Source of the DNA: an uncultured bacterium
Lineage (GTDB): Bacteria > Omnitrophota > Omnitrophia > Omnitrophales > Abzuiibacteriaceae
NCBI GenBank assembly: GCA_964387845.1
Contig: CAYLXA010000002.1
Location: 32,001 to 96,000 of the forward strand
Direction of reading: 5' to 3'
DNA length: 64,000 bases
The notes under the pieces are model-generated. The model made no database searches. It saw nothing but the letters and a program-made list of their open reading frames with translations, and was not told the origin of the DNA. Every line of letters starts with the position of its first letter. Positions within the stretch are counted from its first letter, which is position 1. Below are positions 691 to 50,395 of this stretch, piece after piece. The position numbers were made by a program, and so were the translations under genes.

Positions 691-1395
691 ATGAAAATCA
701 CCCTCCTGATTATGACCTGGAACGAAATCGATGGAATGCGTGTGATCATGCCTCAGATCAAGAAAGAGTGGTATGACCAGCTCATCGTGGTTGATGGCGG
801 GTCGACGGACGGAACAATTGAATACGCAAAAGAATGTGGTTACGAAGTATATGTACAGAAACAAAAAGGGTTTCGGCACGCGTATACGGAAGTGATGCCT
901 TATGTTAAAGGTGATGTCATTGTTACTTTTAGCCCGGACGGTAATTCAATTGCCGAGCTGATTCCGGAGCTTAATAAAAAAATGCGCGAAGGCTACGATA
1001 TGGTCATCGTTTCGCGGTATTTGGGGAAAGCAAAAAGCAAGGATGATGATTTGGTGACGGGATTTGGCAATCGGTTATTTACAGGAACCGTAAATTTGCT
1101 TCATGGCGGGCATTATACGGATGCCATGGTGATCTTTCGCGCTTACCGGAAACAGATCGTTTACGATTTAGATTTAGACAAAGAAGAAAGCTATTCGTTT
1201 CCGGAAAAATTATTCAACACCAAAATCAGCTGGGAGCCGCTTTTGTCTGTTCGCGCTGCGAAGCGTAAATTAAAGGTCTCAGAAATTCCGGGCGACGAGC
1301 CGCCGCGAATCGGCGGCGAGAGAAAACTACAAGTACTTAAGTGGGGCGCGGCCTACTATTACCAATTCATCAGCGAAGTGTTTTGTTGGCGTTAA
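691..1395 (+). CDS. family-2 glycosyltransferase (Dpm1-like, soluble)
   Basis: 234-aa ORF. N-terminal GT2 signature (LLIMTWNE…LIVVDGGSTDGT). The size and motif fit a polyprenyl-phosphate sugar synthase-type GT2. Confidence 0.75.
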   Translation: MKITLLIMTWNEIDGMRVIMPQIKKEWYDQLIVVDGGSTDGTIEYAKECGYEVYVQKQKGFRHAYTEVMPYVKGDVIVTFSPDGNSIAELIPELNKKMREGYDMVIVSRYLGKAKSKDDDLVTGFGNRLFTGTVNLLHGGHYTDAMVIFRAYRKQIVYDLDLDKEESYSFPEKLFNTKISWEPLLSVRAAKRKLKVSEIPGDEPPRIGGERKLQVLKWGAAYYYQFISEVFCWR

Positions 1396-1419: not shown

Positions 1420-2355
1420 ATGGCAAAAATCTTGGTAACCGGAGGAGCAGGGTATATCGGATCTGTTTTAGTGCCTACGCTTCTCAAAGAAAAGCATGAA
1501 GTAACCGTGCTTGATAATCTCATGTACCAGCAATCCTCGCTGTTGGATGTTTGTTACGATTCTAATCTCACGGTAGTGCGCGGAGATGCCCGCGATGAAA
1601 AACTGATCGCAGGTCTGGTCAAAACCGTCGATTATATTTTCCCGCTCGCATGTTTGACGGGAGCGCCCCTTTGCGACAAAGATCCTTTCGCGGCCAAAGA
1701 AGTGAACTTAGATGCTATTTTGTTAATTTTAAAACACCGCAGTAAGAATCAGCGCGTAATCTATCCGACGACCAACAGCGGCTACGGAATCGGCCAAAAA
1801 GGAATCCATTGCGATGAAAAAACGCCGCTCAATCCGATTTCGCTCTATGGCAAATTAAAAGTTGAGGCTGAAAAGGCGATTTTGGATTCCGGAAATGCGG
1901 TTACCTTTCGTCTCGCAACGGCGTTCGGCATCAGTCCGCGGATGCGGCTTGATTTGTTGGTGAACGATTTTGTCTACCGAGCGATTAATGACCGTGCTGT
2001 GATTCTTTTTGAAAGTCATTTCAAGCGTAACTATGTCCACGTTCGCGATATTTCGCGAGCATTTGTGCATGCGGTGAATCATTTCGATAAAATGAAAAAC
2101 GAACCGTACAATGTCGGTTTAAGCGACTGCAATTTAAGCAAAAAAGAATTGTGCGATGAAATCAAAAAGCAGGTTCCCAAATTTTATTATGTTGAGTCGG
2201 CAATTGGCGAAGACCCGGATAAACGCGATTACATCGTGAGCAACGAAAAAATCGAGAAAACAGGGTTCAAAACCGAGCATCCGTTGACGGTTGGGATACG
2301 AGAGCTGATCAAGGGGTATCAAGTTATCAAACGGAGTCAATACGGAAACGTTTAA
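1420..2355 (+). CDS. NAD-dependent sugar epimerase/dehydratase (extended SDR)
   Basis: TGGAGYIGS Rossmann motif at the N-terminus. YGKLK matches the YxxxK catalytic motif. Confidence 0.8.
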   Translation: MAKILVTGGAGYIGSVLVPTLLKEKHEVTVLDNLMYQQSSLLDVCYDSNLTVVRGDARDEKLIAGLVKTVDYIFPLACLTGAPLCDKDPFAAKEVNLDAILLILKHRSKNQRVIYPTTNSGYGIGQKGIHCDEKTPLNPISLYGKLKVEAEKAILDSGNAVTFRLATAFGISPRMRLDLLVNDFVYRAINDRAVILFESHFKRNYVHVRDISRAFVHAVNHFDKMKNEPYNVGLSDCNLSKKELCDEIKKQVPKFYYVESAIGEDPDKRDYIVSNEKIEKTGFKTEHPLTVGIRELIKGYQVIKRSQYGNV

Positions 2356-3348
2356 ATGGCGAAATCAACTTCACCAAAAAATAAAGAAATTCTAATCTCG
2401 CTTTATAAAGCGATGCTGAAAATCCGCCGTGCGGAGGAAAAAGTGGCGGAACTTTATCCGTCCGACAAAATCCAAAGCCCGATTCATCTATGCATCGGAC
2501 AGGAGGCTATTTCAGCGGGCGTTTGCCTTGCCATGAAACAGTCAGATCATCTTTATGGAACTTATCGCGGCCACGGTGTTTATTTGGCAAAGGGCGGCAG
2601 CATGAAACAAATGTTTGCCGAGTTGTATGCGAAAGACACGGGTTGTGCGGGCGGTCGCGGCGGCTCCATGCATTTGATTGCGCCCGAAGTTGGCTTGATG
2701 GGATGTTCAGCGATTGTGGCCAGTACGATTCCGCTGGCGGTGGGCGATGCGCTTGCCACAAAGATGCGGAAGAAAAATGATGTAACCGTGACTTTTTTTG
2801 GCGACGGTGCTATCGGCGAAGGCGTTTTCTTTGAAAGTTTGAATTTCGCGGCGTTGAAAAAGCTGCCCGTGGTCTTTGTCTGTGAAAATAACAATTACGC
2901 GGTTCATTCGCGCGTCTCAGACCGCCATAAACAAACCGATCTTTATAAGTACGCGCAGCCTTTCGGAGTTCCGTCTAAACGTTTAGATGGCAATGATGCC
3001 TTGTTAGTTTATGAATCAATGTCGGATGCGATTGCAAAAGCACGGAAGGGCAGCGGTCCTATCTTTATTGAATATATGACCTACCGCATTTATGAACATG
3101 TGGGCCCGTCCAAGGATCATAAAGAGGTGTACCGCGAGACAAAAAAGTTAAAAAATGCCGAAAAAAACGATCCTGTCATTCGATTGGGAAAAGAGCTGCG
3201 TCAAAAATACAAGATTCCTGAATCTGTATTTGCTGAATGGGAATCTGAATTACAGAAAGAGGTCGAGAGCGCGGTCCAGTTCGCAGAAAAAAGTCCGGAG
3301 CCCCCAGCTAGCCGTTTGTACGAGCACATCTATTTGGAGAGATCATGA
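2356..3348 (+). CDS. thiamine-diphosphate-dependent dehydrogenase E1 component, alpha subunit (PDH/acetoin-DH E1alpha-like)
   Basis: YRGHG…GGRGGSMH…FFGDGA…ENNNYA motifs typical of E1 alpha subunits. Start abuts the previous stop. Confidence 0.8.
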   Translation: MAKSTSPKNKEILISLYKAMLKIRRAEEKVAELYPSDKIQSPIHLCIGQEAISAGVCLAMKQSDHLYGTYRGHGVYLAKGGSMKQMFAELYAKDTGCAGGRGGSMHLIAPEVGLMGCSAIVASTIPLAVGDALATKMRKKNDVTVTFFGDGAIGEGVFFESLNFAALKKLPVVFVCENNNYAVHSRVSDRHKQTDLYKYAQPFGVPSKRLDGNDALLVYESMSDAIAKARKGSGPIFIEYMTYRIYEHVGPSKDHKEVYRETKKLKNAEKNDPVIRLGKELRQKYKIPESVFAEWESELQKEVESAVQFAEKSPEPPASRLYEHIYLERS

Positions 3349-4376
3349 GCATTATCAGCTACGGCGAAGCCAATAAACAGGCGCTGACACTGGCGATGGA
3401 ACGCGACCCGAGCGTTTTCTTGATGGGAATCGGTGTAGATGACCACAAGGCCATTTTCGGTAGCGTGCGCGGCATGGTCGAACAGTTCGGCAAAGAGCGT
3501 ATTTTTGATACGCCGATTGCGGAGAGCGGGATGACGGGAATCGCGATTGGCGCCGCGCTAAACGGTATGCGGCCTGTCCATATTCATATCCGCGCCGACT
3601 TTTTATATTTGGCGATGGACCAGCTTTTTAATATTGCAGCGAAGTGGCATGCGATGTTTGGCGGAAAAATGAGCGTTCCGATTGTGATTCGCGCCGTGAT
3701 CGGCCGCAGCTGGGGGCAGGGTGCGCAGCATTCCCAAAGCCCTCAGGCCATGATTGCCCACGTTCCGGGTATTAAATTAGTAATGCCGACCACAGCGTAT
3801 GACGTGAAGGGCTTGCTGCTCAAAGCAATTACCGATCCAAATCCGGTGGTGATGATTGAACATCGCCTGCTTTACGACATTAAAGGAGAGGTGCCGGATG
3901 GTTATTATGAAATTCCATTCGGAAAGGGTGTTGTAAGACGAACCGGAAAGGATGTTACGATTGTCGCAACTTCCTATATGGTTGTTGAGGCATTGAAAGC
4001 TGCCGAATTTTTAACGAATCAGGGAATTGAGGTCGAGATCATTGACCCGCTTACACTGGTTCCGCTGGATGAAGAATTGATTCTGCGATCAGTTCAAAAA
4101 ACCGGCAGAATGCTGGTTGCGGATACCGGCTGGACCAATTGTGGCGTGAGCGCTGAAATTTCCGCGCGTGTTGCAGATCTCGGTTTTTCGTCACTCAAAG
4201 GCCCGATTCGCCGGCTCGGCATGGCGCCCACTGCTTGTCCGGTCAGCAAAGCCCTTGAAAACGCCTTTTATCCAAACGCTAAAACGATTGTCCAGCAAGT
4301 TTGCGAAATGTTGGGCGAGGCGGTTCCAAATGTAGAAGTCCCGCTTTTGGAAAGCAAATTCAAAGGGCCGTTTTAA
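3345..4376 (+). CDS. E1 component beta subunit (transketolase-like)
   Basis: 343-aa ORF. Overlaps the alpha gene by 4 nt, suggesting translational coupling. Transketolase-like Pyr and C-terminal domains characteristic of E1 beta. Confidence 0.8.
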   Translation: MSIISYGEANKQALTLAMERDPSVFLMGIGVDDHKAIFGSVRGMVEQFGKERIFDTPIAESGMTGIAIGAALNGMRPVHIHIRADFLYLAMDQLFNIAAKWHAMFGGKMSVPIVIRAVIGRSWGQGAQHSQSPQAMIAHVPGIKLVMPTTAYDVKGLLLKAITDPNPVVMIEHRLLYDIKGEVPDGYYEIPFGKGVVRRTGKDVTIVATSYMVVEALKAAEFLTNQGIEVEIIDPLTLVPLDEELILRSVQKTGRMLVADTGWTNCGVSAEISARVADLGFSSLKGPIRRLGMAPTACPVSKALENAFYPNAKTIVQQVCEMLGEAVPNVEVPLLESKFKGPF

Positions 4377-5560
4377 TGATTAAATATCATTTAGCTAAAG
4401 ACACAATTGATGAAAAAGATATTCAGGCACTGATTGAGTGGCTTAAATCCTACCCACGGCTCACGAAAGCAAATCTCACGCTTCAATTTGAAGAGCGGTG
4501 GAGCAAATGGCTTGGAAAGAAATATTCAACCTTCTGCAATTCCGGCTCATCCGCAAATTTGTTGATGTATTACGCGCTGCTAAGTTCCAAAAAGCTTAAA
4601 AATAAAAAAGTCGTCGTACCGACTGTTGGATGGGTGACCACCATTGCGCCTGCCATTCAATTCGGCTTTGAGCCGATCATGTGTGAAGCTGATCCCGACA
4701 CTTTTGGCCTTGATTTGGGTCATCTGGAAAAACTTCTCAAGAAGCACAATCCCGGCACGGTAGTGTTGGTACAGGTGCTCGGCGTTCCTCATAAAATGGA
4801 CGAAATTTTGGCGCTTAAGAAAAAATACGACTTCTATTTGTTGGAAGATGCCTGCGCTTCAATCGGTTCCACATATCACGGTAAAAAAATTGGGCAGTTC
4901 GGTGATATGGCAAGCTTTTCGTTCTATTTTGGACATCAAATGTCAACCATCGAAGGCGGTATGGTATCGACGGACAATAAAGAGTTTCAGGATTTATTAT
5001 TGATGCTTCGAAGCCATGGCTGGAGCAAGGATTTAGACGCAAAGACTCATGATGCGCTCGTTGAGCAATATAAAATTGATGACTTTCATACGCCCTTTGT
5101 TTTTTATGAGCCGGGGTTCAATTTGCGCTCAACCGACCTCAACGCATTTCTGGGGCTTCGGCAATTGGACAAGCTCGATTGGATGATTTCGCGGCGTGAT
5201 GAAAATCATAAGCTCTATTATAAACTCTTGGCAAATCAGTTTTACGCTCAGAAATATGCGGATCCAAAAGCAAATGTTTCAAGTATCTCATTTGGTGCTT
5301 TGGCCGCTGATCCGGAAGAGCGGCGCAAGGTCGTGAAGGCTTTGGTGCAGAACGGGATTGAAACCCGGATTTTTTCGGCAGGAAATCTAGGTTTGCATCC
5401 GTTTTGGTATAACCGATACGGAAAAGCGAGCTTTCCGGTTGCCGATAAAGTACACCATTGCGGATTTTTCCTTCCAAATCATCCGTCGCTTGCGACGAAA
5501 GATGTTGAATTTGTGGCGCAGGTAACCTTGGATGCGGTATGCACGGGAAAATCCTCGTAA
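4376..5560 (+). CDS. DegT/ColD/E1-family PMP-dependent sugar 3-dehydratase, with His replacing the catalytic Lys
   Basis: DegT-fold ORF. The ATG at 4376 overlaps the upstream TAA (TAATG); the track's longer start at 4301 is unlikely. The conserved SFYFGHQMSTIEGG segment has His where aminotransferases carry the Schiff-base Lys. The 394-aa size matches ColD-type dehydratases. Confidence 0.65.
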   Translation: MIKYHLAKDTIDEKDIQALIEWLKSYPRLTKANLTLQFEERWSKWLGKKYSTFCNSGSSANLLMYYALLSSKKLKNKKVVVPTVGWVTTIAPAIQFGFEPIMCEADPDTFGLDLGHLEKLLKKHNPGTVVLVQVLGVPHKMDEILALKKKYDFYLLEDACASIGSTYHGKKIGQFGDMASFSFYFGHQMSTIEGGMVSTDNKEFQDLLLMLRSHGWSKDLDAKTHDALVEQYKIDDFHTPFVFYEPGFNLRSTDLNAFLGLRQLDKLDWMISRRDENHKLYYKLLANQFYAQKYADPKANVSSISFGALAADPEERRKVVKALVQNGIETRIFSAGNLGLHPFWYNRYGKASFPVADKVHHCGFFLPNHPSLATKDVEFVAQVTLDAVCTGKSS

Positions 5561-6468
5561 CCGGCGGCACAGGTCTTTTGGGATCAGCGCTTCAAAAGCA
5601 GTGTCCGGATGCGGTTTATGTTGGAAGTAAAGATTATGACTTGAGACGGTTTGATGAGGCTGAGAGGATGTTTGGCGAAATAAAACCAACCCGCGTGATT
5701 CATCTTGCGGCCAATGTGGGTGGGGTGAAGAAAAACGCGGAGCAAAATGCCACACTTTTCTCGGACAATGTTTTAATCAACACCAATGTGATTGAGGCTG
5801 CAATTCAAGGCGGTGTTAAGCGGTTGATTTCAATTTTATCCAGCTGTTGTTTTAAAATTTATCCGGACAAGCCGTCAACAGAGAGCGATTTGCATGAAGG
5901 TGCGCCGTTTGCCGGCAATTTGGGCTATGGTTATGCAAAGCGAATGCTGGACATCCATAGCCGCTTAGCGTGGGAGCAGCATCGGCTGCAGTTTTCATCG
6001 ATCACTCCAGCGACAATGTATGGGCTTAACGATAACTGGGATCTAGAAAGCGGACATGTGGTGGCTGCGTTAATCCGCCGGACGTTTATAGCGAAAGAAA
6101 GGGGCGAGCCGTTGACTGTTTGGGGAAGTGGAAATGCTGTCCGCCAATTTGTCTTAGCAGATGATGTCGCGAGGCTGCTTTTAGAGGAGATTGATACGTT
6201 TGATGGCCCCGACAATATGATCGTAGCACCGGATTCGGGTGTCTCGATACGCGATTTAACAAGCATGATCGCGGAGCTGATGAATTTTAAAGGAGAAATT
6301 ATTTTTGACCAGTCGAAACCGGAGGGACAATTAAAGAGAGTGTTGATCAGTGAGAAATTTAAAAAGCGGTATCCCGAATTTAGCTTTACACCGCTTCGCA
6401 GCGGCTTAAAAATGACCATTGATTGGTTTCTCAAAAACTATAAAACAGCAAGGGTTTTGAAGGTGTGA
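5539..6468 (+). CDS. GDP-L-fucose synthase-like 3,5-epimerase/4-reductase (SDR)
   Basis: LVTGGTGLLGSAL Rossmann motif. SSCCFKIYP and GYGYAK motifs parallel Fcl SSCIYP / YAIAK. Confidence 0.7.
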   Translation: MHGKILVTGGTGLLGSALQKQCPDAVYVGSKDYDLRRFDEAERMFGEIKPTRVIHLAANVGGVKKNAEQNATLFSDNVLINTNVIEAAIQGGVKRLISILSSCCFKIYPDKPSTESDLHEGAPFAGNLGYGYAKRMLDIHSRLAWEQHRLQFSSITPATMYGLNDNWDLESGHVVAALIRRTFIAKERGEPLTVWGSGNAVRQFVLADDVARLLLEEIDTFDGPDNMIVAPDSGVSIRDLTSMIAELMNFKGEIIFDQSKPEGQLKRVLISEKFKKRYPEFSFTPLRSGLKMTIDWFLKNYKTARVLKV

Positions 6469-6469: not shown

Positions 6470-7516
6470 ATGATTATTAGCCGAACCCCTTTTCGTGTTT
6501 CTTTTTTAGGCGGCGGAACCGATTACCCCGGTTGGTACCGTGAGCATGGCGGAGCCGTGTTGGCGACAACCATTGATAAGTACTGCTATATTACTTGCCG
6601 CTATCTACCCCCATTTTTTGAGCATAAAAGCCGCATCATGTATTCCAAAATCGAGTGCGTTCAGTCCAATAAAGACATCGAACATCCCTCTGTGCGGGAA
6701 ACTTTGAAATATATGAATATCCAAGAGGGGATTGAGATTCATCACGACGGCGATTTGCCTGCCCGCGCCGGTTTGGGATCAAGCTCTGCTTTTACAGTGG
6801 GATTATTGAACGCGCTTTATGGCCTTAAGCGTAAAATGTCGTCTAAAGAAGATTTGGCAAAGGAAGCGATTCATGTGGAAAGAGATCTCCTGAGCGAGAA
6901 TGTGGGATCTCAAGATCAGGTACAGTCGTCGTTTGGCGGTTTGAATCACATTGAATTCCTCAAAAACGGACAATTTAACGTTTTTCCGATTGTTTTGAAG
7001 CATGAGCGCCTTCAAAGTTTTCAAGATCATCTTTTGCTGTATTTTACGGGTTTCTCGCGTTTTGCTTCAGACATTGCAAAAGAGCAAATTGATTCGATTG
7101 CGAAAAAACAAAATGAGCTTAAAGCGATGGGGCAAATGGTTGGTGAAGGCCTCAAGATTCTTACGGGTGACGCAAGCTTGTTGGAATTTGGAAAATTGCT
7201 GCATGAAAGCTGGACATTGAAGCGGAATTTGACTAACCGGATTTCAACACCTGCCATTGATCAAATTTATGAAGAAGCGCGGAGGGCAGGCGCCGTGGGC
7301 GGAAAGCTGCTCGGGGCCGGCGGGGGCGGTTTCGTTCTTTTGCTGGTTGAGCCCGGTAAACAGCAAAAAGTAAAGGATGTGCTGCAAAAATTATTGCTGG
7401 TCCCGTTTCAATTCGAAAACACGGGAACGCAGGTTGTTTTTTACCGCCCTCCCAAGGAAAGTACCGAAATGAGTTGGTTTAAGTTCCAAAAGGAGCGGGA
7501 AGCTTCGCAAAAGTGA
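6470..7516 (+). CDS. GHMP-family sugar kinase, D-glycero-D-manno-heptose 7-phosphate kinase (HddA)-like
   Basis: N-terminus PFRVSFLGGGTDYP plus GHMP ATP-binding motif GLGSSSA. The C-terminal GGKLLGAGGGGF segment is HddA/fucokinase-like. Confidence 0.7.
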   Translation: MIISRTPFRVSFLGGGTDYPGWYREHGGAVLATTIDKYCYITCRYLPPFFEHKSRIMYSKIECVQSNKDIEHPSVRETLKYMNIQEGIEIHHDGDLPARAGLGSSSAFTVGLLNALYGLKRKMSSKEDLAKEAIHVERDLLSENVGSQDQVQSSFGGLNHIEFLKNGQFNVFPIVLKHERLQSFQDHLLLYFTGFSRFASDIAKEQIDSIAKKQNELKAMGQMVGEGLKILTGDASLLEFGKLLHESWTLKRNLTNRISTPAIDQIYEEARRAGAVGGKLLGAGGGGFVLLLVEPGKQQKVKDVLQKLLLVPFQFENTGTQVVFYRPPKESTEMSWFKFQKEREASQK

Positions 7517-8238
7517 ACAAACGCCTGACCGATCCAGCACACATTGACGTGTTAATTATTTGCGGAGGGCTGGGGACGCGCCTCCGTTCTGTCGAGCCCG
7601 ATGCGCCCAAAGGCATGGTTGTTATTGAAGGAAAACCGTTTCTTGAAATTCTGATTGATCATTTGCGTCATTCCGGTTTTCGGCGTTTTATTCTCTGCAC
7701 CGGTTACGGCGCCAAACGTTTTCGGCAGCATTTTGAAGCGGCCAAACAGTCAGAAATTATATTTTCCGAAGAAGTAAAGCCGCTGGGCACGGCCGGAGCT
7801 GTCAAGCAAGCCGAAAAACTCATAAGCAGCGATCAGCAGTTGGTGTTAAATGGCGATTCTTTGTGCTTGGCGGATTGGCAGGAGCTATTACGCTTTCATG
7901 CATCGCATCAGGGGTTGGCAACGCTTTTGGTAACTCAGGACCGAGAGCGAACGGATGTGGGCGGAATCAAGTTTGATCACAACTTCGGCGTAACGCAATT
8001 TAAAGAAAAGGAAAAAGAATCGACCCCATATATTAATGCGGGTATTTATATTTTTGAGCGCCGGTTATTGGAATTGATTCCGAAAAATCAAAAAATTTCT
8101 TTGGAGGAACAAATTTTTCCAAAGCTGAACGAAACCCAACTGTTTGCTTGCGTATCATTAGCAACTGTGTATGATATTGGAACGCCCGAACGTTTAGAGA
8201 AATTTAAACAACTTTATTCTGCAGGAAAATTCAATTAA
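7513..8238 (+). CDS. sugar-phosphate nucleotidyltransferase, heptose-1-P guanylyltransferase (HddC)-like
   Basis: GTG start. LIICGGLGTRLRS…PK motif of NDP-sugar pyrophosphorylases. Overlaps the kinase by 4 nt. Confidence 0.7.
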   Translation: MNKRLTDPAHIDVLIICGGLGTRLRSVEPDAPKGMVVIEGKPFLEILIDHLRHSGFRRFILCTGYGAKRFRQHFEAAKQSEIIFSEEVKPLGTAGAVKQAEKLISSDQQLVLNGDSLCLADWQELLRFHASHQGLATLLVTQDRERTDVGGIKFDHNFGVTQFKEKEKESTPYINAGIYIFERRLLELIPKNQKISLEEQIFPKLNETQLFACVSLATVYDIGTPERLEKFKQLYSAGKFN

Positions 8239-8243: not shown

Positions 8244-9794
8244 ATGGTTAATACAAAAAATAAACTTGATGTCTTGCTCATTAATCCTGGCAATTTGATC
8301 CAGGTTTACCAAACGCTGGGACTCAATATTTCTGCTATCGAGCCGCCGGTTTGGTCCGGGTTGATGGCCACTTTCGTTCGGCGCAAAGGCTGTTCCGTTC
8401 AAATTCTGGATGCTAACGCCGAGAATCTGACCCCTGCTCAAACTGCGCAAAAAGCGCTTGAGTTGAAGCCGCTTCTGATCGCTGTTGTTGTTTACGGACA
8501 TCAACCGTCGGCTTCGACGCAAATTATGCCGGCGGCAAGTTCAATTTGCTCCGCGATTAAGGCGCAAGACCCAAGCCAAAAGGTGTTTTTGGTTGGCGGG
8601 CATGTCTCGGCGCTGCCTGATCGGACGCTGAGCGAGGAAAGTGCAGATTTTGTGTCGAGCGGCGAGGGGCCGCACACGCTTTTAGAGTTAATTGAGGCGC
8701 TGAAAGCCGGCGGCTCCGAAAATTTAAAGAAGGTTCGCGGATTACTTTATAAAGAAAACGGGAAAATTCAGTTCAACGCACCGGCACCACTCGTCAAAAA
8801 CTTGGATGAAGAAATGCCTGAAATGGCCTGGGATCTTTTGCCTATGGAAAAATACCGGGCGCACAACTGGCATTGTTTCGGTCATTTAGATAAACGCGCG
8901 CCTTATGCTTCGTTTTATACCACGCTCGGGTGTCCGTATCACTGCACTTTTTGTTGTATTCAGTCGCCTTACAAAACCGGAGAAAAAGAGTCTGGTTTGA
9001 AGGAGGAGATTAACAGCTATCGCTTCTGGAATCCCAAAACGGTTGTCGATCAAATCGGAAAATTAGTCAACGAATACGGAGTCCGCAATATTAAGATCGC
9101 AGACGAGATGTTTGTTCTCAATGCGCGTCATGTATTTGGTATTTGCGATTTGATCATTGAGCGCGGTTATGATTTGAATATTTGGGCGTATGCACGCATT
9201 GACACAATTAAGGACAATATGCTGGACAAATTAAAGCGTGCGGGTGTGAACTGGCTCGCGTTTGGCATCGAGTCGGGTAGCGAGCGTGTCCGAGATAATG
9301 TGGACAAAGCGTTTGACCAAGAGGACATTCGCAAAGTAATTCAAAAAGTGAAAGATGCTGGTATTAACATCATCGGAAATTATATCTTCGGGCTACCGGA
9401 AGATGATATGAATTCAATGAAAGCCACTCTGGATTTAGCGCTCGAACTTAATTGCGAATTTACCAACTTTTATTGCGCGATGGCGTATCCCGGGTCTCCT
9501 TTGTATCAGCAGGCTATCCGTGAAAAATGGGCATTACCAAAAGCCTGGAGCGGTTATTCTCAGCATTCGGTCGATATGCTTCCGCTTGCCACAAAACACC
9601 TCCCGGCTTCTGACGTTATTCGGTTTAGAGACCAGGCATTTGAGGTTTATTTTAAATCACCTAAATATTTAGAGATGGTGCGCCAAAAATTCGGCGAAGA
9701 AACTTTAAAACATATCCAGGCAATGCTTTCACATCAGCTTAAACGACAATTCGTTTCTTCAAGCACGTCAAAAACCTCATCGCAAAAGAGTTGA
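8244..9794 (+). CDS. B12-binding (class B) radical SAM enzyme
   Basis: N-terminal cobalamin-binding Rossmann-like domain. CPYHCTFC gives a CX3CX2C radical SAM motif. 516 aa. Confidence 0.75.
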   Translation: MVNTKNKLDVLLINPGNLIQVYQTLGLNISAIEPPVWSGLMATFVRRKGCSVQILDANAENLTPAQTAQKALELKPLLIAVVVYGHQPSASTQIMPAASSICSAIKAQDPSQKVFLVGGHVSALPDRTLSEESADFVSSGEGPHTLLELIEALKAGGSENLKKVRGLLYKENGKIQFNAPAPLVKNLDEEMPEMAWDLLPMEKYRAHNWHCFGHLDKRAPYASFYTTLGCPYHCTFCCIQSPYKTGEKESGLKEEINSYRFWNPKTVVDQIGKLVNEYGVRNIKIADEMFVLNARHVFGICDLIIERGYDLNIWAYARIDTIKDNMLDKLKRAGVNWLAFGIESGSERVRDNVDKAFDQEDIRKVIQKVKDAGINIIGNYIFGLPEDDMNSMKATLDLALELNCEFTNFYCAMAYPGSPLYQQAIREKWALPKAWSGYSQHSVDMLPLATKHLPASDVIRFRDQAFEVYFKSPKYLEMVRQKFGEETLKHIQAMLSHQLKRQFVSSSTSKTSSQKS

Positions 9795-10978
9795 CTCAGT
9801 CGCGATCAACGCAGAAGCAATGGATAGTTATCGGCGGCGGCATTATTGGCACCGCGGTTGCCCTGGCTCTTGCTAAGCGCAAAGCTGGCTCAATCTTAAT
9901 TCTAGAGAAAGAATCTTCGCTCGGGCTTCATCAAAGCGGTCGCAACAGCGGTGTCATTCATTCCGGGATTAATCAAAAACCCGGAAGTTTGAAAGCAAAA
10001 ATGTGCGTTGAGGGCAGCCGGCGCTTGCGAGAATATTGCAGACAGCGGCGGATTGTGATGAATGAATGTGGGACTTTAGTGATTGCGCGTCATGCCGAAG
10101 AGCTGGCAACCCTAGACCGTCTTTTAAAAATGGGTGTCGAGTGCGGCGTTGAGGGGTTGATGTTAATCGGCCGCGATGAATTGATTGAGCGGGAACCGAT
10201 TGCCAAAGGCGATAGTGCTCTTCTGTCTCCCTCAGGCGCAACCGTTGATTCTGAAATGCTCCTCAAATCTCTTGCGCAAGATGCGCGCGAGGTCGGTGTT
10301 GAGTATAAAATGGTCCATCGCGTTTTAAAAATCGAAGGAAATACGGTCTATACCAACCAAGGGAGTTTCAACGCCGAATACATCATTAATTGTGCGGGGC
10401 TTTATGCAGATGAAATTGCGCATATGATGAACGCAGGGAGAGGTTATCGGATTATTCCATTTCGCGGCGAGTATATGGAAGTCAAAAATTGCGATGTGAA
10501 ATCAATGGTTTATCAGGCTCCTGATCTCCGGTTTCCGTTTTTGAGCATTCATTTAACCCGGGAAACGGACGGAAGAGTGCTTGCCGGGCCTAGCGCAGTT
10601 TTGGCGTTTGGCAGGGAAGCATATGAGAAGGAATGGGATTGGCGTGAAATGGGCCGCATGTTTACTAGTATGCAATTTTTACGGATGGTTATCAGACCAG
10701 AGTTTGTGCAGCTAGCTTCCGAGAATTTGAAAACATCGCTATCAGCAAATAGTTTTTTGGAGCAGATTCAGTCTCTGGTTGCAGGTGTAACGCAAGAACA
10801 GATTGTGCCGCATCGGGCCGGAATCCGAGCTCAGATGGTGGATCAAAGCGGTAAATTGGTTGATGATATTTTGGTGGAACATCAACCGTCGGCAACGCAT
10901 GTGCTGAATGCAGTATCTCCCGGAATGACGTGCAGTCTGGCATTTGCAGACTATTTAGCGGGGCAAATTTTAAATTAG
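9791..10978 (+). CDS. FAD-dependent oxidoreductase (L-2-hydroxyglutarate oxidase LhgO-like)
   Basis: TTG start overlapping the previous stop. The WIVIGGGIIGTAVA dinucleotide-binding motif immediately follows. LhgO/DAO-family architecture. Confidence 0.7.
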   Translation: MTQSRSTQKQWIVIGGGIIGTAVALALAKRKAGSILILEKESSLGLHQSGRNSGVIHSGINQKPGSLKAKMCVEGSRRLREYCRQRRIVMNECGTLVIARHAEELATLDRLLKMGVECGVEGLMLIGRDELIEREPIAKGDSALLSPSGATVDSEMLLKSLAQDAREVGVEYKMVHRVLKIEGNTVYTNQGSFNAEYIINCAGLYADEIAHMMNAGRGYRIIPFRGEYMEVKNCDVKSMVYQAPDLRFPFLSIHLTRETDGRVLAGPSAVLAFGREAYEKEWDWREMGRMFTSMQFLRMVIRPEFVQLASENLKTSLSANSFLEQIQSLVAGVTQEQIVPHRAGIRAQMVDQSGKLVDDILVEHQPSATHVLNAVSPGMTCSLAFADYLAGQILN

Positions 10979-11002
10979 TGAGATAGTTAACGAGTGGCTT
11001 GT

Positions 11003-11968
11003 ATGAAAAAAATTTTAATCTGCGGCGGAACTGGTTTTATCGGCAGGAATTTGGTTGAGTATTTTGTCAAAAAACCAGATTTTGAAGTTTACGCAACTTG
11101 TTACAAGCGTCGTTCTCCCTTAATTCCAAAGGCTAAATTTAAGCGTATTGATTTAACAAATGTTGTGCAAGTTCAAGAAATTGTGAAGGGGATGGATGTT
11201 GTGGTTCAAGCCGCTGCCACAACCTCCGGCGTAAAGGATACGATTGAGGCGCCTTATGTGCACGTTACAGATAACGCCGTAATGAACTCCTTGATTTTTC
11301 GAGCGTGTTTCGAGCAAAAGGTGAAACACGTGATCTTTTTAAGCTGTACCGTGATGTATCCGAATCAGGAGGCGCCAGTTTCGGAAGAAGATATGAATTA
11401 TCAAATTACGGATAATTATTTTGGTGTCGGTTGGACAAAAGTTTACCTCGAGAAAATGAGCCAATTTTATTCGCGAATCGGAAGTGCTAAATATACCGCG
11501 ATTCGGCATTCCAATATTTACGGCCCTTATGATAAGTATGATCTTGAAAAATCACACGTTTTTGGCGCAACGGTTGCGAAAGTTGAAACTGCCAAGGACG
11601 GCAAAGTTGTGGTCTGGGGCACGGGCGCCCAAGAGCGCGATCTTTTATATGTGGATGACCTGTCCCGGTTTATTGATTTGGCAATTGAAAAGCAAACTGA
11701 AAAGTTTGAGCTGGTTAATGTTGGTTACGGAAAAAGCATTTCAATTGCTAATCTGGTCCAGTTGATTATTGACCGCTCCAAAAAGAATTTAAAGATTGAG
11801 TATGATCATTTAAAGCCTTCGGTTAACTTCAAGTTGGTTCTGAATATCGACCGCGCAAAGCGCATTTTTGGCTGGGAGCCGCAGGTGCCGCTTGAAGAAG
11901 GAATTGAAAGGAGTCTTGCGTGGTATCGAAAACATATTCAACCAATGTCTGCCGAAAAGATTAAATGA
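11003..11968 (+). CDS. NAD-dependent epimerase/reductase (second Fcl-like SDR)
   Basis: ICGGTGFIGRNL motif. An LSCTVMYP segment lies where Fcl has SSCIYP. The alternative start is 10994. Confidence 0.7.
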   Translation: MKKILICGGTGFIGRNLVEYFVKKPDFEVYATCYKRRSPLIPKAKFKRIDLTNVVQVQEIVKGMDVVVQAAATTSGVKDTIEAPYVHVTDNAVMNSLIFRACFEQKVKHVIFLSCTVMYPNQEAPVSEEDMNYQITDNYFGVGWTKVYLEKMSQFYSRIGSAKYTAIRHSNIYGPYDKYDLEKSHVFGATVAKVETAKDGKVVVWGTGAQERDLLYVDDLSRFIDLAIEKQTEKFELVNVGYGKSISIANLVQLIIDRSKKNLKIEYDHLKPSVNFKLVLNIDRAKRIFGWEPQVPLEEGIERSLAWYRKHIQPMSAEKIK

Positions 11969-14019
11969 AAAGCAAATTAATTTGCGCTGCCGTATTAGTG
12001 GCGCTGATTGTGATTTCATTTTACACCTACCGCTCCGGTGTCATTTCCGTGCCTCGCTCCGATCACTATGGGTTTATGGCGGAGAGGGAATACGCAGTTT
12101 CGGATACCGAGTTTTTGTTGAAGCAGTTGGTCTATAACCGGACCCGCGTCATCGCAAAGGGTGATTCTTTTTTGTTCAGGCCCGGAATGACCGGCACGCT
12201 CGCGCTTTTGGATATTTTTTTTCGGCATAATTTGTATGCGCTTGGCGCTTTCAGTATCCTCGCGCATGCTTTGACGGCTTTTTCATTGTTCTTATTGCTG
12301 AGTTTGTTTTTAAGGCGCTCTTTTGCGTTTATCCTATCCGTTGTATTTGCCACGCATCTGGCAGGTTTTGAAATGGTTTTTTGGCGCCATATCAGTCCTT
12401 ACATGTTTTGCCTGGTTTTTGTAGGATTGGCATTGTACGCGCTTGGCCGCTGGCTTCAGCCGCCCGAAAATCGAAATTGGCTTTTATTATTTTCATTCTG
12501 CCTTTTTTTATCTTCACTATTTCACGAAGTTGTTTTGCCGGCGATGGTTATCTTCTGTCTTTTATTTTTAGTTCTGCATTTTCAAAATCAATCAACGAAT
12601 CCATCTTATTTTAAATCATTGTCAATCGCGTGCCTGGTCCCGCTGGCTGCTAATTTGCTGCTCAACGTCGCTGGCCGGATCGCTTTTAGCAGCCAGGCCA
12701 ACCTGTTATTGAGTGATGCGGCGCAACCGGCAAGCGTTGCTTACGCCTCAAAATTTTTAAGCCACGCGGTTTACGTCGGGGGCCTGATTATCACTGCCTT
12801 TTTGGCGCCGAGCATCATTCGTTTCTCATTTATTAATTTGGATTTTCGGGCGGAGTGGGACTTTCTCAAAATTCCAGCGCCTGTTTTTTACACCGCCGGT
12901 TTTATTTTTCTTACATTGATCGCAGGGGCGTTAATTTATCTATATATTTTCAGAAAAAAGCTCGGTCAGCGACAGCTTTTTCCGATTTTTGCATTCGCGG
13001 GAATATTTTTGATTGTCACTTTTTTGGGACTAACGGTCGGGAGGGCCATTCCGCGCTCAATCGGTTATTTGAAAAACTCCACCTATTATTTCTATCTAAC
13101 CAATTACGCCCTTACAATCATCGTTGCTATGGGCTTGAGAAAAATCAGCAGCTTACCGTATAAAAATTTAAAAATCGGATTAGTGTTTTTCCTGCTCTGT
13201 GTTGCCGGTTATCAGATTAAAAGCGGTATTGCGGGAATCGAAAAGGCAATCAATGCTCGAGGTGATTACGATAAACAAATCGCTTCCAAAACACTCCGGG
13301 TTTGGTCAGAATTAAGCAAGCATCCGGAATATTGCTATGGTGGGACCGGGGCCGAAAGAGTTTCAAGCTTTGTGCCCAATGTTCTGCTGTACCGAAGGTC
13401 ATGCAATGCTTTCCCGGACAAAATCCCGCTCTATTTGCTCGAAAACGAAAAACGCGAACTTTGGTTTATGCAGTTGATTCCTGAGCAGATTGATCAGCAG
13501 GCCTATCGTTATGGGCAGATCAATAATGAGGGGCAAGCCGAGTTTTCCGCTCAATCAACCGATAACCAGCTCAGTTTTAGCGGTTTTTCTCTTAGCAATG
13601 CCGTCCATCATCCTATTTATTACGGCGCCCGGCTTCATGGGGGATTTGTCGGAGGTTTGGTATTTAACTATCACGACCCCGCCAATTTTTCAATCTTAGT
13701 GGCAAATGAACGTTACACTTATGTGCAATTTAACGAGAATGGAAACCCCTCGGAACCGTCGTATGTGGCGCAGCAGATTTTAGATCCGATCGCTTTTGAT
13801 TTGTCGATTCGGAGAATCGGCGGCAGGTATGTTGTATTCTATAACCGGACTTTGCTTGCAGTGATCAATGATGCTGTTTCCGAGGGACGAGTGGGGCTTT
13901 ATCGGAAGCCCCGTCATTCAGCAGGCGAGTATTTTACCGACGTGGTCTTGATTGATGCTTCAGAGGCCAAACAATCGCAGATGGGTGCTTTTGAACCTGT
14001 TTTTCAATTTCAATTTTAG
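11965..14019 (+). CDS. large polytopic membrane protein with a ~250-aa C-terminal soluble beta-rich domain (GT-C-like?)
   Basis: 684 aa. About 10 predicted TM segments in the first ~430 aa, then a hydrophilic C-terminal domain. 4-nt overlap with the upstream gene. Confidence 0.6.
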   Translation: MKSKLICAAVLVALIVISFYTYRSGVISVPRSDHYGFMAEREYAVSDTEFLLKQLVYNRTRVIAKGDSFLFRPGMTGTLALLDIFFRHNLYALGAFSILAHALTAFSLFLLLSLFLRRSFAFILSVVFATHLAGFEMVFWRHISPYMFCLVFVGLALYALGRWLQPPENRNWLLLFSFCLFLSSLFHEVVLPAMVIFCLLFLVLHFQNQSTNPSYFKSLSIACLVPLAANLLLNVAGRIAFSSQANLLLSDAAQPASVAYASKFLSHAVYVGGLIITAFLAPSIIRFSFINLDFRAEWDFLKIPAPVFYTAGFIFLTLIAGALIYLYIFRKKLGQRQLFPIFAFAGIFLIVTFLGLTVGRAIPRSIGYLKNSTYYFYLTNYALTIIVAMGLRKISSLPYKNLKIGLVFFLLCVAGYQIKSGIAGIEKAINARGDYDKQIASKTLRVWSELSKHPEYCYGGTGAERVSSFVPNVLLYRRSCNAFPDKIPLYLLENEKRELWFMQLIPEQIDQQAYRYGQINNEGQAEFSAQSTDNQLSFSGFSLSNAVHHPIYYGARLHGGFVGGLVFNYHDPANFSILVANERYTYVQFNENGNPSEPSYVAQQILDPIAFDLSIRRIGGRYVVFYNRTLLAVINDAVSEGRVGLYRKPRHSAGEYFTDVVLIDASEAKQSQMGAFEPVFQFQF

Positions 14020-14043
14020 TTATGCGGTAGTGAGGTGTGTGTG

Positions 14044-15963
14044 ATGATTTTGTTTCCGGTTTTATTATTTGCGGCTTTGGTTCTGATTTTAAACGGCCAT
14101 CCGCAATTTCGAGTCAATGAACGCGATGATTGGCGTTATCAAACGGGTCTTGCATTTGTTGTGACGGGCGTCATCGCGGTTGCTGCGATTGAAGTGTTGA
14201 GCGTTTTTTCTGCGCTTACACAAAAAACCGTTGGCGTGACATGGGGAGCGCTGCTGTGCGTTGCTCTGTCTGTTTGGTTTTTTGGTTATCGAAAAACTCA
14301 GATCCTGCCTTCGATTTCCGGTTTTTCAGGTTTATTCTTAGGGCTTTTGTCCGGGATTTTTTTCCTCGTAATTATTACGAGCGTTGTTGCTCTTTTGGCT
14401 CCGCCCAATACATGGGATTCGCTGACGTATCACATGAGCCGGGTCGCGCATTGGGTCCAAAATAGAAGTGTCGGACACTATCCAACCAACATTTTAAGGC
14501 AATTGTATCATGCGCCAGGAGCCGAATTTATGATCTTGCAAGCCCAGCTCTTGAGCGGAGGCGACCGCTTTGCCAATATGATTCAATGGAGTTTTTATAT
14601 CGGCTGTGTTCTCACCAGTTCTTTGCTGACAAAGCAATTTGGATTTGACCGGTGGGCACAGCTGCTGACCGCGGTTTTTGCGTCAACGCTCCCGATGGCG
14701 ATTTTACAGGCTTCAAGCACGCAAAACGATCTGGCAGCCTCGTTCTGGCTTCTTGCAGCAGTTGTGTTTCTTCTGAGGCTGCAGAATCAATTTAATTGGA
14801 CAGATGCGTGCGGTGCCGGTGCCGGTATTGGGCTTGCGTTTCTGACAAAATCACTATCCTATGTTTACATTATTCCGTTCATAGCGTGGTTTGCTTGGGC
14901 TTGCGTCAGAAACAGGCAGTGGGGAAAGTTGTCAAAAACTGCGGCGTTAATTGCTGCGCTGGTTATCGTGATTAATCTGGGCCACTGGTCGCGCAATTTC
15001 GTACTTTTCCATCATCCGCTAGGGCCAATAAAAACAATAGATTTAACCAACGAGAAATTCGGCGTCCGGCCCGTGTTGTCTAACATAATTCGGGGCGCTG
15101 CCTCGCACGCGAGCTTTCCGATCATTGGTATTAACCACGAGCTGACCAAATGGATTTATGCGTTCCACCGTTCGCTTGGCATGGATGCCAATGATCCGAA
15201 GACAACCTATGATCCTAATTTTGGAAAATTTCAAATCCGTCCGCTTCACGCCCATGAAGATTCAGCGAGCAACCCCATTCATTTTTGGCTGATTGTGATT
15301 TGCGGGATTATTGCGCTGCGCAGGCGCGAGACTCGAAAAGAGCCAAAATTTATATTTTATCTTGCATCGGTCATTGCTGCCTTCCTGCTAATTTGCATTA
15401 TTTTCAAGTGGCAAGTGTGGATCAGCCGTTTGCAGCTGCCTCTTTTCTTTTTTTGGGCACCTGTGGCGGGTTCAGTGCTGTCTTTGATGAAAGCAAAAAG
15501 CGTATCTGGCGCAGTTGCCGTTTTTTTGCTGGTCAGCTCACTTTATTCAGCTTTCTTTAATTTTTCTCGGAGTTTTTTTAAGTGGCCTTTTGTTGACAAT
15601 ATGCCGCCCACTGTTTTTGAAGCAGGACGTGACATGCTGTATATGAATAACGGGGCTAACATTGTGAAGCTTTCATATTTACTTGCAACAAAACATATTG
15701 AATCGAAGCGCTATAAGAATGTCGGACTTATTGTTCATGAGGATGACTGGGAATATCCGTACTGGGCGATACTGCAAGCCAATCGGAATGCGATCCGGAT
15801 TGAACATATAGAAGTGGCGAATATATCGAGTAAAATAAAAAGAAAGCCTTTTCGGCCGGATGTTGTTATTGCATCAAAGCCAACGGATGGGCAAATCCGA
15901 CGCTATGAAGCCGAGTATGGTTCCGGCGAACAGATGGGAATTTTGTGGGTTTTTGGCCGGTAG
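14044..15963 (+). CDS. polytopic GT-C-type membrane glycosyltransferase (ArnT/PMT-like)
   Basis: ATG at 14044 preceded by GAGGTG. Many TM helices. Early loop PPNTWDSLTYHMSRVAHW resembles the GT-C acidic loop. Soluble C-terminal ~150 aa. Confidence 0.6.
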   Translation: MILFPVLLFAALVLILNGHPQFRVNERDDWRYQTGLAFVVTGVIAVAAIEVLSVFSALTQKTVGVTWGALLCVALSVWFFGYRKTQILPSISGFSGLFLGLLSGIFFLVIITSVVALLAPPNTWDSLTYHMSRVAHWVQNRSVGHYPTNILRQLYHAPGAEFMILQAQLLSGGDRFANMIQWSFYIGCVLTSSLLTKQFGFDRWAQLLTAVFASTLPMAILQASSTQNDLAASFWLLAAVVFLLRLQNQFNWTDACGAGAGIGLAFLTKSLSYVYIIPFIAWFAWACVRNRQWGKLSKTAALIAALVIVINLGHWSRNFVLFHHPLGPIKTIDLTNEKFGVRPVLSNIIRGAASHASFPIIGINHELTKWIYAFHRSLGMDANDPKTTYDPNFGKFQIRPLHAHEDSASNPIHFWLIVICGIIALRRRETRKEPKFIFYLASVIAAFLLICIIFKWQVWISRLQLPLFFFWAPVAGSVLSLMKAKSVSGAVAVFLLVSSLYSAFFNFSRSFFKWPFVDNMPPTVFEAGRDMLYMNNGANIVKLSYLLATKHIESKRYKNVGLIVHEDDWEYPYWAILQANRNAIRIEHIEVANISSKIKRKPFRPDVVIASKPTDGQIRRYEAEYGSGEQMGILWVFGR

Positions 15964-26956: not shown

Positions 26957-26963
26957 CTAGGGA

Positions 26964-30762: not shown

Positions 30763-31134
30763 TTGAGACCCCAGCAGTTGGTTTTGGCAGCCGAGCAGGC
30801 CGCTGACGATAAAAAGGCCGAAAATCCGGTTGTCTTAGACCTTCGGAAATCAACGGCCGCTGCCTCCTATTTTTTGATCGTCAATGGTACCTCCGATCGT
30901 CATGCGCGTACGATTGCCGAAAATGTGATCGACGAGCTCGGCAAGAAGGGCGTCAAAGCCTGGCATACAGAAGGTATGCGGGAAGGCCGTTGGATTTTGA
31001 TCGATTTCGTGGATTTGGTGGTGCATGTGTTTCATCACGAAACAAGACGGTTTTATGACCTCGAACGGCTTTGGGGAAAACCTGTAAAACCTGCGGCCCC
31101 GAAAAGGAAAAAGAGAAGTGCGAGAAAGCGTTAA
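30763..31134 (+). CDS. rsfS: ribosomal silencing factor RsfS (Iojap family)
   Basis: TTG start. Colinear with E. coli RsfS (…LDL…SDRH…IVHVF…LERLW). Confidence 0.75.
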   Translation: MRPQQLVLAAEQAADDKKAENPVVLDLRKSTAAASYFLIVNGTSDRHARTIAENVIDELGKKGVKAWHTEGMREGRWILIDFVDLVVHVFHHETRRFYDLERLWGKPVKPAAPKRKKRSARKR

Positions 31135-37488: not shown

Positions 37489-37561
37489 GCCCATGTAGCT
37501 CAGCTGGTAGAGCGGCGCTTTCGTAAAGCGTAGGTCGTCAGTTCAATCCTGACCGTGGGCT
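37489..37561 (+). tRNA. tRNA-Thr (anticodon CGU)
   Basis: 73-nt cloverleaf by eye: 7-bp acceptor stem GCCCATG/CGTGGGC, D-arm GCTC/GAGC, anticodon stem GCGCT/AGCGT with loop TTCGTAA, T-arm GTCAG-TTCAATC-CTGAC. Starts 1 nt after the hldD stop. Confidence 0.85.
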
Positions 37562-37564
37562 GTT

Positions 37565-48495: not shown

Positions 48496-48515
48496 TTCGT
48501 GATGAGTTGTTATTT

Positions 48516-49496: not shown

Positions 49497-49497
49497 C

Positions 49498-50394: not shown

Positions 50395-50395
50395 G

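Follow-up and report, generated by a model that had tools for sequence, protein, structure and literature searches.

The 64,000-nucleotide stretch of DNA analyzed here (hereafter the window) covers positions 32,001 to 96,000 of contig CAYLXA010000002.1 (assembly GCA_964387845.1), from an uncultured Omnitrophota bacterium of the family Abzuiibacteriaceae. Genes on the plus strand run from position 691 to at least 15963 of this window, with neighbors that either overlap or are separated by gaps of at most 24 nt. Within this operon, the gene at 4376-5560 (hereafter the target) translates into an intact 394-amino acid (aa) protein, and very probably encodes a ColD-type nucleotide-sugar 3-dehydratase, dependent on pyridoxamine 5'-phosphate (PMP) and free of any iron-sulfur (Fe-S) cluster. 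The target and its active-site motif are located as follows:

4376..5560, + strand: predicted ColD-type PMP-dependent sugar 3-dehydratase, 394 aa (Pfam DegT 1.7e-72; ColD 2gms 1.7e-52; model TM 0.84 to ColD)
4919..4960, + strand: active-site motif SFYFGHQMSTIEGG, with the His187 codon at 4934-4936; His187 lies opposite ColD His188 and the lysine of aminotransferases

In a mechanically generated list of open reading frames (ORFs), the target ORF begins at an upstream TTG (4301). Judged from homologue lengths (387-398 aa), from homologue alignments that begin at residue 1-3, and from the overlap of the ATG at 4376 with the preceding gene's TAA stop (TAATG), the true start is this ATG and not the TTG.

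A ColD-like protein with a histidine at the lysine position

Both sequence and predicted structure place the target closest to ColD. The protein matches the Pfam family DegT_DnrJ_EryC1 (PF01041) over its full length, and its AlphaFold model (pLDDT 86.6, pTM 0.88) has ColD as the best fold match in the PDB according to Foldseek, with GDP-perosamine synthase also among the fold matches. When compared to PDB sequences, ColD from E. coli O55 ranked first and Yersinia E1 (3bcx, 2.6e-37) second, followed by perosamine synthase, PseC, and ArnB. E1 refers here to the sugar 3-dehydrase, as distinct from the thiamine-dependent E1 alpha and E1 beta subunits discussed below.

What chiefly distinguishes 3-dehydratases from aminotransferases is the replacement of the catalytic lysine by a histidine (PMC8987622). 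A first-pass annotation of this DNA, made from its letters and ORFs, had proposed that the target combines an aminotransferase fold with a histidine in place of the lysine that binds pyridoxal 5'-phosphate (PLP). The alignment it suggested as a check, with ColD, E1, and ArnB/PseC-type proteins, bears this out, with the histidine at the lysine-equivalent position and no other lysine aligning there. In the phmmer alignment to ColD, residues G-H-Q of the target stand opposite S-H-H, and because the deposited ColD mutant chains H188N (3b8x), H188K (2r0t), and S187N/H188K (3gr9) differ in precisely the column of target His187, this residue can be equated with ColD His188. When DegT paralogues from related loci were aligned to the target with MAFFT, the aminotransferase-type proteins showed a lysine in this column, e.g., FHPVKSV (locus L008) and FYPTKNLG (L019). 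A plain aminotransferase was therefore rejected, with no lysine at the site and no alternative lysine aligned to it.

This histidine is conserved far beyond the source lineage. All 121 close homologues retain both His187 and the entire G-H-Q-x-S-T-x-E-G-G block, while among 108 full-length representatives of 50%-identity clusters (30-54% identical to the target) the position is occupied by histidine in 105 and by lysine in none. From these alignments, a histidine at the lysine position is not a chance occurrence. Around it, Asp158 and Ser182 of the cofactor site are strictly conserved, and Asn249, Arg251, and Arg331, which are common to ColD, nearly so. In four 50%-cluster representatives from the ColD-like clade (P0373, P0385, P0411, and P0499), an intein bearing a LAGLIDADG endonuclease separates GHHM from STIEGG, three residues past the catalytic histidine.

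The four-cysteine [2Fe-2S] motif of E1 and SpnQ, absent from ColD (PMC8987622), provides a second diagnostic feature. As read from 3bcx, the E1 ligands are Cys193, 251, 253, and 261 (C-X57-C-X-C-X7-C), of which the target retains only the first, as Cys160, a residue also found in ColD. The target region opposite E1's GRDCYCAPGCDNTC is an alignment gap without cysteine, and none of the 108 full-length representatives has a CxC motif in the part corresponding to the E1 cluster. Domain and family scans identified no E3-type reductase gene in the operon, and operon scans found no CDP-glucose genes. Many target homologues are labeled as CDP-6-deoxy-D-xylo-4-hexulose-3-dehydrase by JGI, and RfbH is the top NCBIfam match to the target; this E1-type assignment was discarded given the lack of Fe-S cysteines and of an E3, and a score at half of the model cut-off. 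Since there is neither an Fe-S motif nor an E3-like partner, and since ColD is the best match in both sequence and fold, the target is best classified as ColD-type rather than E1-type, in agreement with the first-pass annotation, which had leaned the same way after noting no obvious 2Fe-2S cluster.

A third lineage spread across phyla

An exhaustive search with HMMER, covering 1.84 billion representatives of 50%-identity clusters, yielded only 793 sequences at E <= 1e-30, and more than 150 of the 50%-identity clusters are nearer to the target than ColD is. Pairwise identity is 32-34% between the target and ColD, 27% between the target and E1, and 31% between ColD and E1. The target is thus not a ColD orthologue, as the corresponding values among characterized ColD-type members are 62-67%. 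Based on these comparisons, the target clade is a third lineage within a large His-type, Fe-S-free group.

A word-indexed homologue search, in which the best 8,000 candidates were scored and 7,939 matched, further showed that, after the two closest, the 120 homologues listed share 70-82% identity with the target and originate from many phyla. One scan of species-representative genomes yielded 68 related loci (labeled L001 etc.), hosted by Nitrospira, Elusimicrobia, Patescibacteria (Candidate Phyla Radiation, CPR), deltaproteobacterial metagenome-assembled genomes (MAGs), Hydrogenedentes, and one Nanoarchaeota MAG. The dehydratase is 70-75% identical between unrelated phyla, whereas the arginyl-tRNA synthetase of the window (31118-32734) has named relatives in Candidatus Omnitrophica/Omnitrophota alone, at 52-57% identity. 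This contrast suggests a very strong constraint on the dehydratase, a horizontal spread of its gene cassette, or both.

Fusions and paralogues were also encountered among these relatives. In P0454, a ColD-like protein and a true GDP-mannose 4,6-dehydratase (GMD) form a single fused chain. A fusion in P0369, considered as potential Rosetta-stone evidence, was uninformative, as the fused short-chain dehydrogenase/reductase (SDR) is neither Cj1427-like nor Fcl-like. Some loci encode a second His-type DegT paralogue, which is ColD-like in L018 (3282-4400, with GHHLSTIEGG) and E1-like in L009 (16529-17704, with EDSCDALG and PAHHITMGEGG).

Gene content of the operon and of the window

The other genes of the operon, all on the plus strand, are as follows:

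691..1395, + strand: GT2 polyprenyl-phosphate glycosyltransferase-like protein (ArnC/AglJ/DPM-like), first gene of the operon (Pfam/NCBIfam; beside the cassette in 10 loci)
1420..2355, + strand: SDR1, Cj1427-like, predicted GDP-heptose C4-dehydrogenase (6VO6/6VO8 1.2e-114; in 56/59 loci)
2356..3348, + strand: thiamine-diphosphate E1 alpha-like protein, candidate C2-branching carboligase (Pfam E1_dh 3.2e-74)
3345..4376, + strand: E1 beta-like subunit (Pfam Transket_pyr and Transketolase_C; stop overlaps the target start)
5539..6468, + strand: GDP-fucose-synthase/ColC-like epimerase-reductase (human GDP-L-fucose synthase 4e5y 1.4e-70; 22-nt overlap with the 3' end of the target)
6470..7516, + strand: HddA-like GHMP sugar kinase (3k85 1.1e-39, WcbL 4usk, Cj HddA 4n3o)
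7513..8238, + strand: HddC/ManC-like sugar-1-phosphate guanylyltransferase (Y. pseudotuberculosis HddC 6jq8/5xhw, 7e-34)
8244..9794, + strand: B12-binding radical S-adenosylmethionine (SAM) enzyme (Pfam B12-binding and Radical_SAM; AprD4 1.4e-15; in 39/59 loci)
9791..10978, + strand: L-2-hydroxyglutarate oxidase-like flavin adenine dinucleotide (FAD) enzyme (NCBIfam NF008726 359.7, cut-off 299)
10994..11968, + strand: second extended SDR, Fcl-like, candidate ketoreductase (motifs of the GDP-fucose-synthase type)
from 11965, + strand: membrane and GT-C (PMT_2) proteins (Pfam)
14035..15963, + strand: GT-C (PMT_2) membrane glycosyltransferase, possible final transferase (Pfam PMT_2 1.5e-08)

The target gene is translationally coupled to the E1 alpha/beta pair. 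Both of these subunits score just under the cut-offs of the NCBIfam pyruvate dehydrogenase models (329.6 for E1 alpha, cut-off 393.85), and no E2 or lipoyl gene was found anywhere in the window. Downstream, the SDR at 5539-6468 carries the motifs SSCC, YGYAK, and GHV, i.e., the Cys, His, and YxxxK of an epimerase-reductase, and is positioned relative to the target as ColC is to ColD. For the radical-SAM enzyme, the nearest solved relative is AprD4, the diol dehydratase of apramycin C3'-deoxygenation, and the best NCBIfam model was HpnJ, far under its cut-off. An ArnC/AglJ-like GT2 opens the operon and GT-C membrane proteins lie downstream, which suggests that the sugar is handed to polyprenyl phosphate and used outside of the cytoplasm. 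This downstream region includes a 684-aa protein without Pfam match alongside the PMT_2/GT-C membrane proteins (11965-15963, 23872-25812).

Outside of the operon, the window carries housekeeping genes, among them those for LptD and sigma-54, as well as several polyamine-related genes: a spermidine-synthase-domain protein of 1074 aa with fused TPR repeats (17777-21001, +), a pair resembling saccharopine dehydrogenase and Orn/DAP decarboxylase, of the carboxyspermidine-pathway type (25802-28415, -), and a deoxyhypusine/homospermidine-synthase-like gene (35411-36532, +). Two adjacent GGDEF diguanylate cyclases, one with a GAF domain, are found at 41208-44095 (+), and a second polysaccharide cluster spans 47203-63626, with two UDP-glucose/GDP-mannose dehydrogenases, RmlB-like and RmlD-like proteins, several extended SDRs, GT2 and GT4 glycosyltransferases, and a methyltransferase. 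A tRNA-Thr(CGT) at 37488-37562 (+) was the sole RNA gene identified by tRNA and Rfam scans of the window.

The predicted substrate is a GDP-4-keto-heptose

A PMP-dependent 3-dehydratase of this type requires a 4-keto sugar, and the genes surrounding the target offer a single candidate for its production. SDR1 is ~60% identical over its full length to 6VO6/6VO8, with YxxxK and Ser/Thr kept, and we take these structures to be Cj1427, the GDP-heptose C4-dehydrogenase of Huddleston et al. (2020). When used as a query, the 6VO6 sequence retrieved 313-aa proteins from Campylobacter jejuni that are 96% identical to it. Cj1427 operates by a ping-pong mechanism, in which its tightly bound NADH is re-oxidized by 2-oxoglutarate to yield L-2-hydroxyglutarate (PMC10680097). 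As the sole nearby enzyme able to make a 4-keto group, the Cj1427 homologue is the likely source of the ketone.

The first-pass annotation had instead assigned the target to GDP-4-keto-6-deoxy sugars, as expected for ColD, a proposal at odds with the gene content. A tblastn search with a manually entered E. coli Gmd probe detected no convincing GMD orthologue in the window; a true Gmd was found in four related loci. Both Fcl-like SDRs of the operon lack a TSE or TDE dehydratase motif and carry the SSC, YxxxK, and H motifs typical of GDP-fucose synthase, so that neither qualifies as a 4,6-dehydratase. The target is thus not found to act after a GDP-sugar 4,6-dehydratase, since its neighboring SDRs are Cj1427-like or Fcl-like. 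Because the operon includes no 4,6-dehydratase and the partner is of the Cj1427 type, which leaves the 6-OH in place, the substrate is predicted to keep its 6-OH. The likeliest substrate from this gene content is GDP-D-glycero-4-keto-heptose with the 6-OH retained, and the 6-deoxy substrate is probably wrong.

The GDP-heptose context proposed in the first-pass annotation, on the other hand, probably holds. A GDP-linked sugar is indicated by the nucleotidyltransferase, which is closest to HddC and ManC, by the GDP-fucose-synthase-like gene overlapping the target, and by the GMD fusion of P0454. Evidence for a heptose comes from the kinase, whose best solved relatives are heptose kinases, from the best PDB match of the nucleotidyltransferase, Yersinia HddC, and from GmhA/GmhB homologues beside the cassette in related loci. 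From the GmhA/HddA/GmhB/HddC set, HddA-like and HddC-like genes are present here, with heptose enzymes as best PDB matches and scores under the NCBIfam cut-offs.

A conserved cassette in related loci

Window proteins and additional probes were compared by tblastn to the 68 related loci, and counts were established on the 59 loci with at least 8 kb of flanking sequence. The most constant partner of the dehydratase is the Cj1427-like SDR, detected in 56 of these 59 loci at 57-71% identity. The kinase was found in 45/59 loci, the B12-radical-SAM enzyme in 39/59 (with a second copy in some, e.g., L024 18482-20119), and the nucleotidyltransferase in 35/59. A thiamine enzyme is encoded in 41/59 loci and is of one of two types: a split E1 alpha/beta pair, or an acetohydroxyacid synthase (AHAS)/YerE-like protein, which in many Nitrospira is accompanied by a class I/II aminotransferase (L037 14758-19504). 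Forty-three of the 59 loci include an Fcl-like SDR or a GMD/Rmd-like SDR, never together. The GMD/Rmd-like SDR occurs in 11 loci (L017, at 11197-12078, as well as L001, L002, L004, L005, L019, L045, L048, L049, L055, and L058), and this mutual exclusivity suggests that it fills the reductase slot.

GmhA/GmhB homologues, searched with manually entered probes, lie beside the cassette in L008, L010, L011, L048, L051, L054, and L056, and L011 displays a contiguous kinase-GmhB-nucleotidyltransferase series in canonical order. The nearest relative on a long contig (L069) encodes a dehydratase 82% identical to the target within the same operon, oxidase included. In Nitrospira (L037 4607-9782, from Nitrospira sp. 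BLG_1, and L024 6205-9699), genes for regulators of a c-di-GMP/motility type, namely PilZ/YcgR-like, HD-GYP, and hybrid histidine kinase genes, are found directly upstream of the cassette.

A putative route to branched 3-deoxy-heptoses

The fold, the histidine, the lack of Fe-S ligands, and the gene linkage are observed at this locus, while the catalytic steps are proposed by homology with ColD (PMC8987622). PMP would condense with the C4 ketone of the GDP-4-keto sugar to a Schiff base, His187 would deprotonate the cofactor at C4', and the 3-OH would be expelled. Hydrolysis of the resulting enamine would release a GDP-3-deoxy-4-keto sugar and ammonia, and L-glutamate would turn PLP back into PMP while releasing 2-oxoglutarate. 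SDR1 would supply the 4-keto substrate, consuming 2-oxoglutarate and releasing L-2-hydroxyglutarate, which the oxidase at 9791-10978 could return to 2-oxoglutarate. In the source lineage, dehydratase (glutamate to 2-oxoglutarate), dehydrogenase, and oxidase could thereby form a closed cofactor cycle.

The fate of the product is the least certain part of this scheme. GDP-3-deoxy-4-keto-heptose may be epimerized and reduced by the ColC/Fcl-like enzyme. Instead of this, or on top of it, the thiamine-dependent E1 alpha/beta pair may use it as a ketone acceptor and so create a branch at C4; the translational coupling of the target to this pair is what suggests C-branching downstream. The B12-radical-SAM enzyme may then modify the branched product further, and export would proceed via the polyprenyl-phosphate GT2 and a GT-C transferase. 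There is published precedent for parts of this scheme. Cj1427 together with the HS:5 ColD-type C3-dehydratase yields GDP-D-glycero-3-deoxy-4-keto-heptose in vitro, with products described as novel (PMC10680097), and these in vitro products were the only 3-deoxy-heptoses found in the searchable literature. The thiamine-diphosphate-dependent carboligases YerE, ErwE, and MMAR_2332 use 3,6-dideoxy-4-keto sugars as acceptors (PMC9306805), and a role in adding acetyl branches at C4 has been proposed for the split E1-like pairs AviB1/B2 and Pau11/12 (PMC4753412). By analogy, the E1 alpha/beta pair may act as a carboligase.

We tentatively propose, as a possibility that we consider less probable than its alternatives combined, that the target catalyzes the committed step of an undescribed pathway that has been widely transferred and occurs in Omnitrophota, Nitrospira, Elusimicrobia, Patescibacteria, deltaproteobacterial MAGs, and a Nanoarchaeota MAG. 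Along this route, GDP-D-glycero-manno-heptose would be converted to a 6-hydroxy-3-deoxy-4-keto-heptose and then, by the thiamine carboligase and the B12-radical-SAM enzyme, to a C4-branched and possibly C-methylated higher-carbon sugar, passed through a polyprenyl-phosphate carrier to GT-C transferases, with the 2-oxoglutarate cycle closed in this lineage. The broader interpretation, that of a ColD-type 3-dehydratase acting on a 6-hydroxy GDP-4-keto-heptose, is the one we favor, with somewhat better than even prospects.

Alternative interpretations

Several observations weigh against this interpretation. Identity to ColD is low, and dehydratase function across the clade is predicted by homology with that enzyme. 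Two invariant positions flanking the cofactor motifs set the target clade apart from ColD: residue 161 is Ala, against Glu in ColD and in 79 of the 108 representatives, and residue 188 is Gln, against His in ColD. The target falls well short of NCBIfam models for both E1-type and aminotransferase proteins (RfbH, its top model, 209.6 bits for a cut-off of 423; PseC, 208.3 for 423.5), the kinase scores 144.7 against the HddA model (cut-off 600), and the guanylyltransferase likewise scores below its NCBIfam cut-offs, that of HddC included. GmhA and GmhB were not found in the window when searched with manually entered probe sequences, and the oxidase occurs in only 2/59 other loci, both among the closest relatives. 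The equation of 6VO6/6VO8 with Cj1427 is presumed, their C. jejuni origin being the confirmed part. Finally, the GMD/Rmd-like SDR of related loci matches Rmd (2pk3, 6.8e-59) about as well as the C. jejuni heptose 4,6-dehydratase (7us5, 6.5e-58), and for this reason some family members may see a 6-deoxy substrate.

This last point leads to the strongest alternative, a classical ColD chemistry in which the substrate is a mannose- or heptose-derived GDP-4-keto-6-deoxy sugar, the 4,6-dehydratase is encoded elsewhere in the genome, and the Cj1427-like SDR is otherwise employed. ColD and the C. jejuni HS:5/HS:11 enzymes do naturally use 6-deoxy substrates (PMC10440746), a true Gmd lies a few kb away in four Patescibacteria-type loci, P0454 is fused to a true GMD, and an SDR matching 7us5 is present in 11/59 loci. 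However, this SDR is equally close to the reductase Rmd, never co-occurs with the Fcl-like reductase whose slot it seems to occupy, and is far less frequent than the Cj1427-like gene (11 vs. 56 of 59 loci), while neither the operon nor the window includes a GMD orthologue. We consider this alternative unlikely, albeit one to be taken seriously.

An aminotransferase-like outcome, in which the amino group of PMP would be transferred to C4 to yield GDP-4-amino-4-deoxy-heptose, similar to SpnQ without its reductase, appears improbable. SpnQ does perform this reaction with PLP and glutamate, and the E1 H220K variant transaminates, but wild-type ColD and E1 gave no transamination under the same conditions (PMC8987622). 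The fold shared with GDP-perosamine synthase would be compatible with transamination, but the target has no lysine to form an internal aldimine, and its histidine is kept across the clade. According to Cook et al. (2009), ColD reportedly required two mutations, S187N and H188K (the mutant in PDB 3gr9), to become an aminotransferase. The thiamine enzymes and reductases encoded downstream also suit a keto product better.

A reductive 3-deoxygenation of the E1/SpnQ type, reliant on an external electron donor, is more improbable still. It would fit the presence of the histidine, the RfbH top match, the JGI labels of homologues, and an FAD oxidoreductase within the operon; yet three of the four Fe-S cysteines are gone, the RfbH score is half of its cut-off, the operon encodes neither an E3-type reductase nor CDP-glucose genes, and the FAD enzyme, missing from most loci, scores above the cut-off for L-2-hydroxyglutarate oxidase. 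That the target would be a catalytically dead or purely structural DegT homologue, as the missing lysine and Ala161 in place of Glu might hint, is scarcely credible for an intact ORF in a tight operon, with 70-75% identity across phyla and invariant cofactor-site residues.

Comparison with known systems

The Lys-to-His replacement and the enzyme class are already known; the clade, its partner enzyme, its probable substrate, and the downstream pathway are undescribed. Members of this clade are nearly always paired with a Cj1427-type C4-dehydrogenase, and usually also with thiamine and B12-radical-SAM enzymes, an arrangement which predicts natural 3-deoxy-heptoses keeping their 6-OH, along with a GDP-heptose route to branched sugars. 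If true, this would represent a new family of surface-glycan sugars in abundant uncultivated bacteria (nitrifying Nitrospira and CPR among them), a source of new biocatalysts, and a physiological reason for the presence of an L-2-hydroxyglutarate oxidase in a glycan operon.

Among characterized enzymes, ColD (WbdK; GDP-4-keto-6-deoxy-D-mannose 3-dehydratase from E. coli O55 and Yersinia; 2gms, 3b8x) is the closest parallel. It shares with the target the DegT fold, the catalytic histidine (His188 in ColD, His187 here), the lack of Fe-S cluster, the RxHGW, EGG, Asp, and Ser cofactor motifs, a GDP-sugar setting, and a ColC/Fcl-like gene directly downstream. ColD differs in having Ser instead of Gly before the catalytic histidine, and in being partnered with GMD, whereas the target sits beside a C4-dehydrogenase and its predicted substrate is a heptose with a 6-OH. 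The C3-dehydratases of C. jejuni HS:5 and HS:11 (GDP-6-deoxy-4-keto-heptose 3-dehydratases; Ghosh, Xiang and Raushel 2023) are likewise ColD-type and handle 4-keto sugars derived from GDP-heptose. In vitro, they convert the Cj1427 product to GDP-D-glycero-3-deoxy-4-keto-heptose, i.e., the reaction proposed for the target (PMC10680097). However, at 62-67% identity to ColD these enzymes belong to the ColD clade, and the target falls outside of it. They also naturally act after a 4,6-dehydratase to make 3,6-dideoxy-heptoses, in clusters without thiamine or radical-SAM genes.

E1 (RfbH/DdhC/AscC; CDP-6-deoxy-L-threo-D-glycero-4-hexulose 3-dehydrase; 3bcx) is similar in fold, in the replacement of the lysine (by His220), and in its PMP-dependent C3 deoxygenation, but is only 27% identical to the target, carries a [2Fe-2S] motif (Cys193/251/253/261), and needs the reductase E3. 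At the pathway level, the closest counterparts are those of yersiniose, erwiniose, and caryophyllose (YerE, ErwE, and MMAR_2332), along with AviB1/AviB2 and Pau11/Pau12, in which a 3-dehydratase gene is coupled to a thiamine enzyme as in the target loci, the related loci also including SDR reductases. These branched-sugar pathways build on CDP- or dTDP-hexoses, with an E1-type Fe-S dehydratase and 3,6-dideoxy acceptors, whereas the system predicted here would be based on GDP-heptose, with a ColD-type dehydratase and a B12-radical-SAM enzyme.

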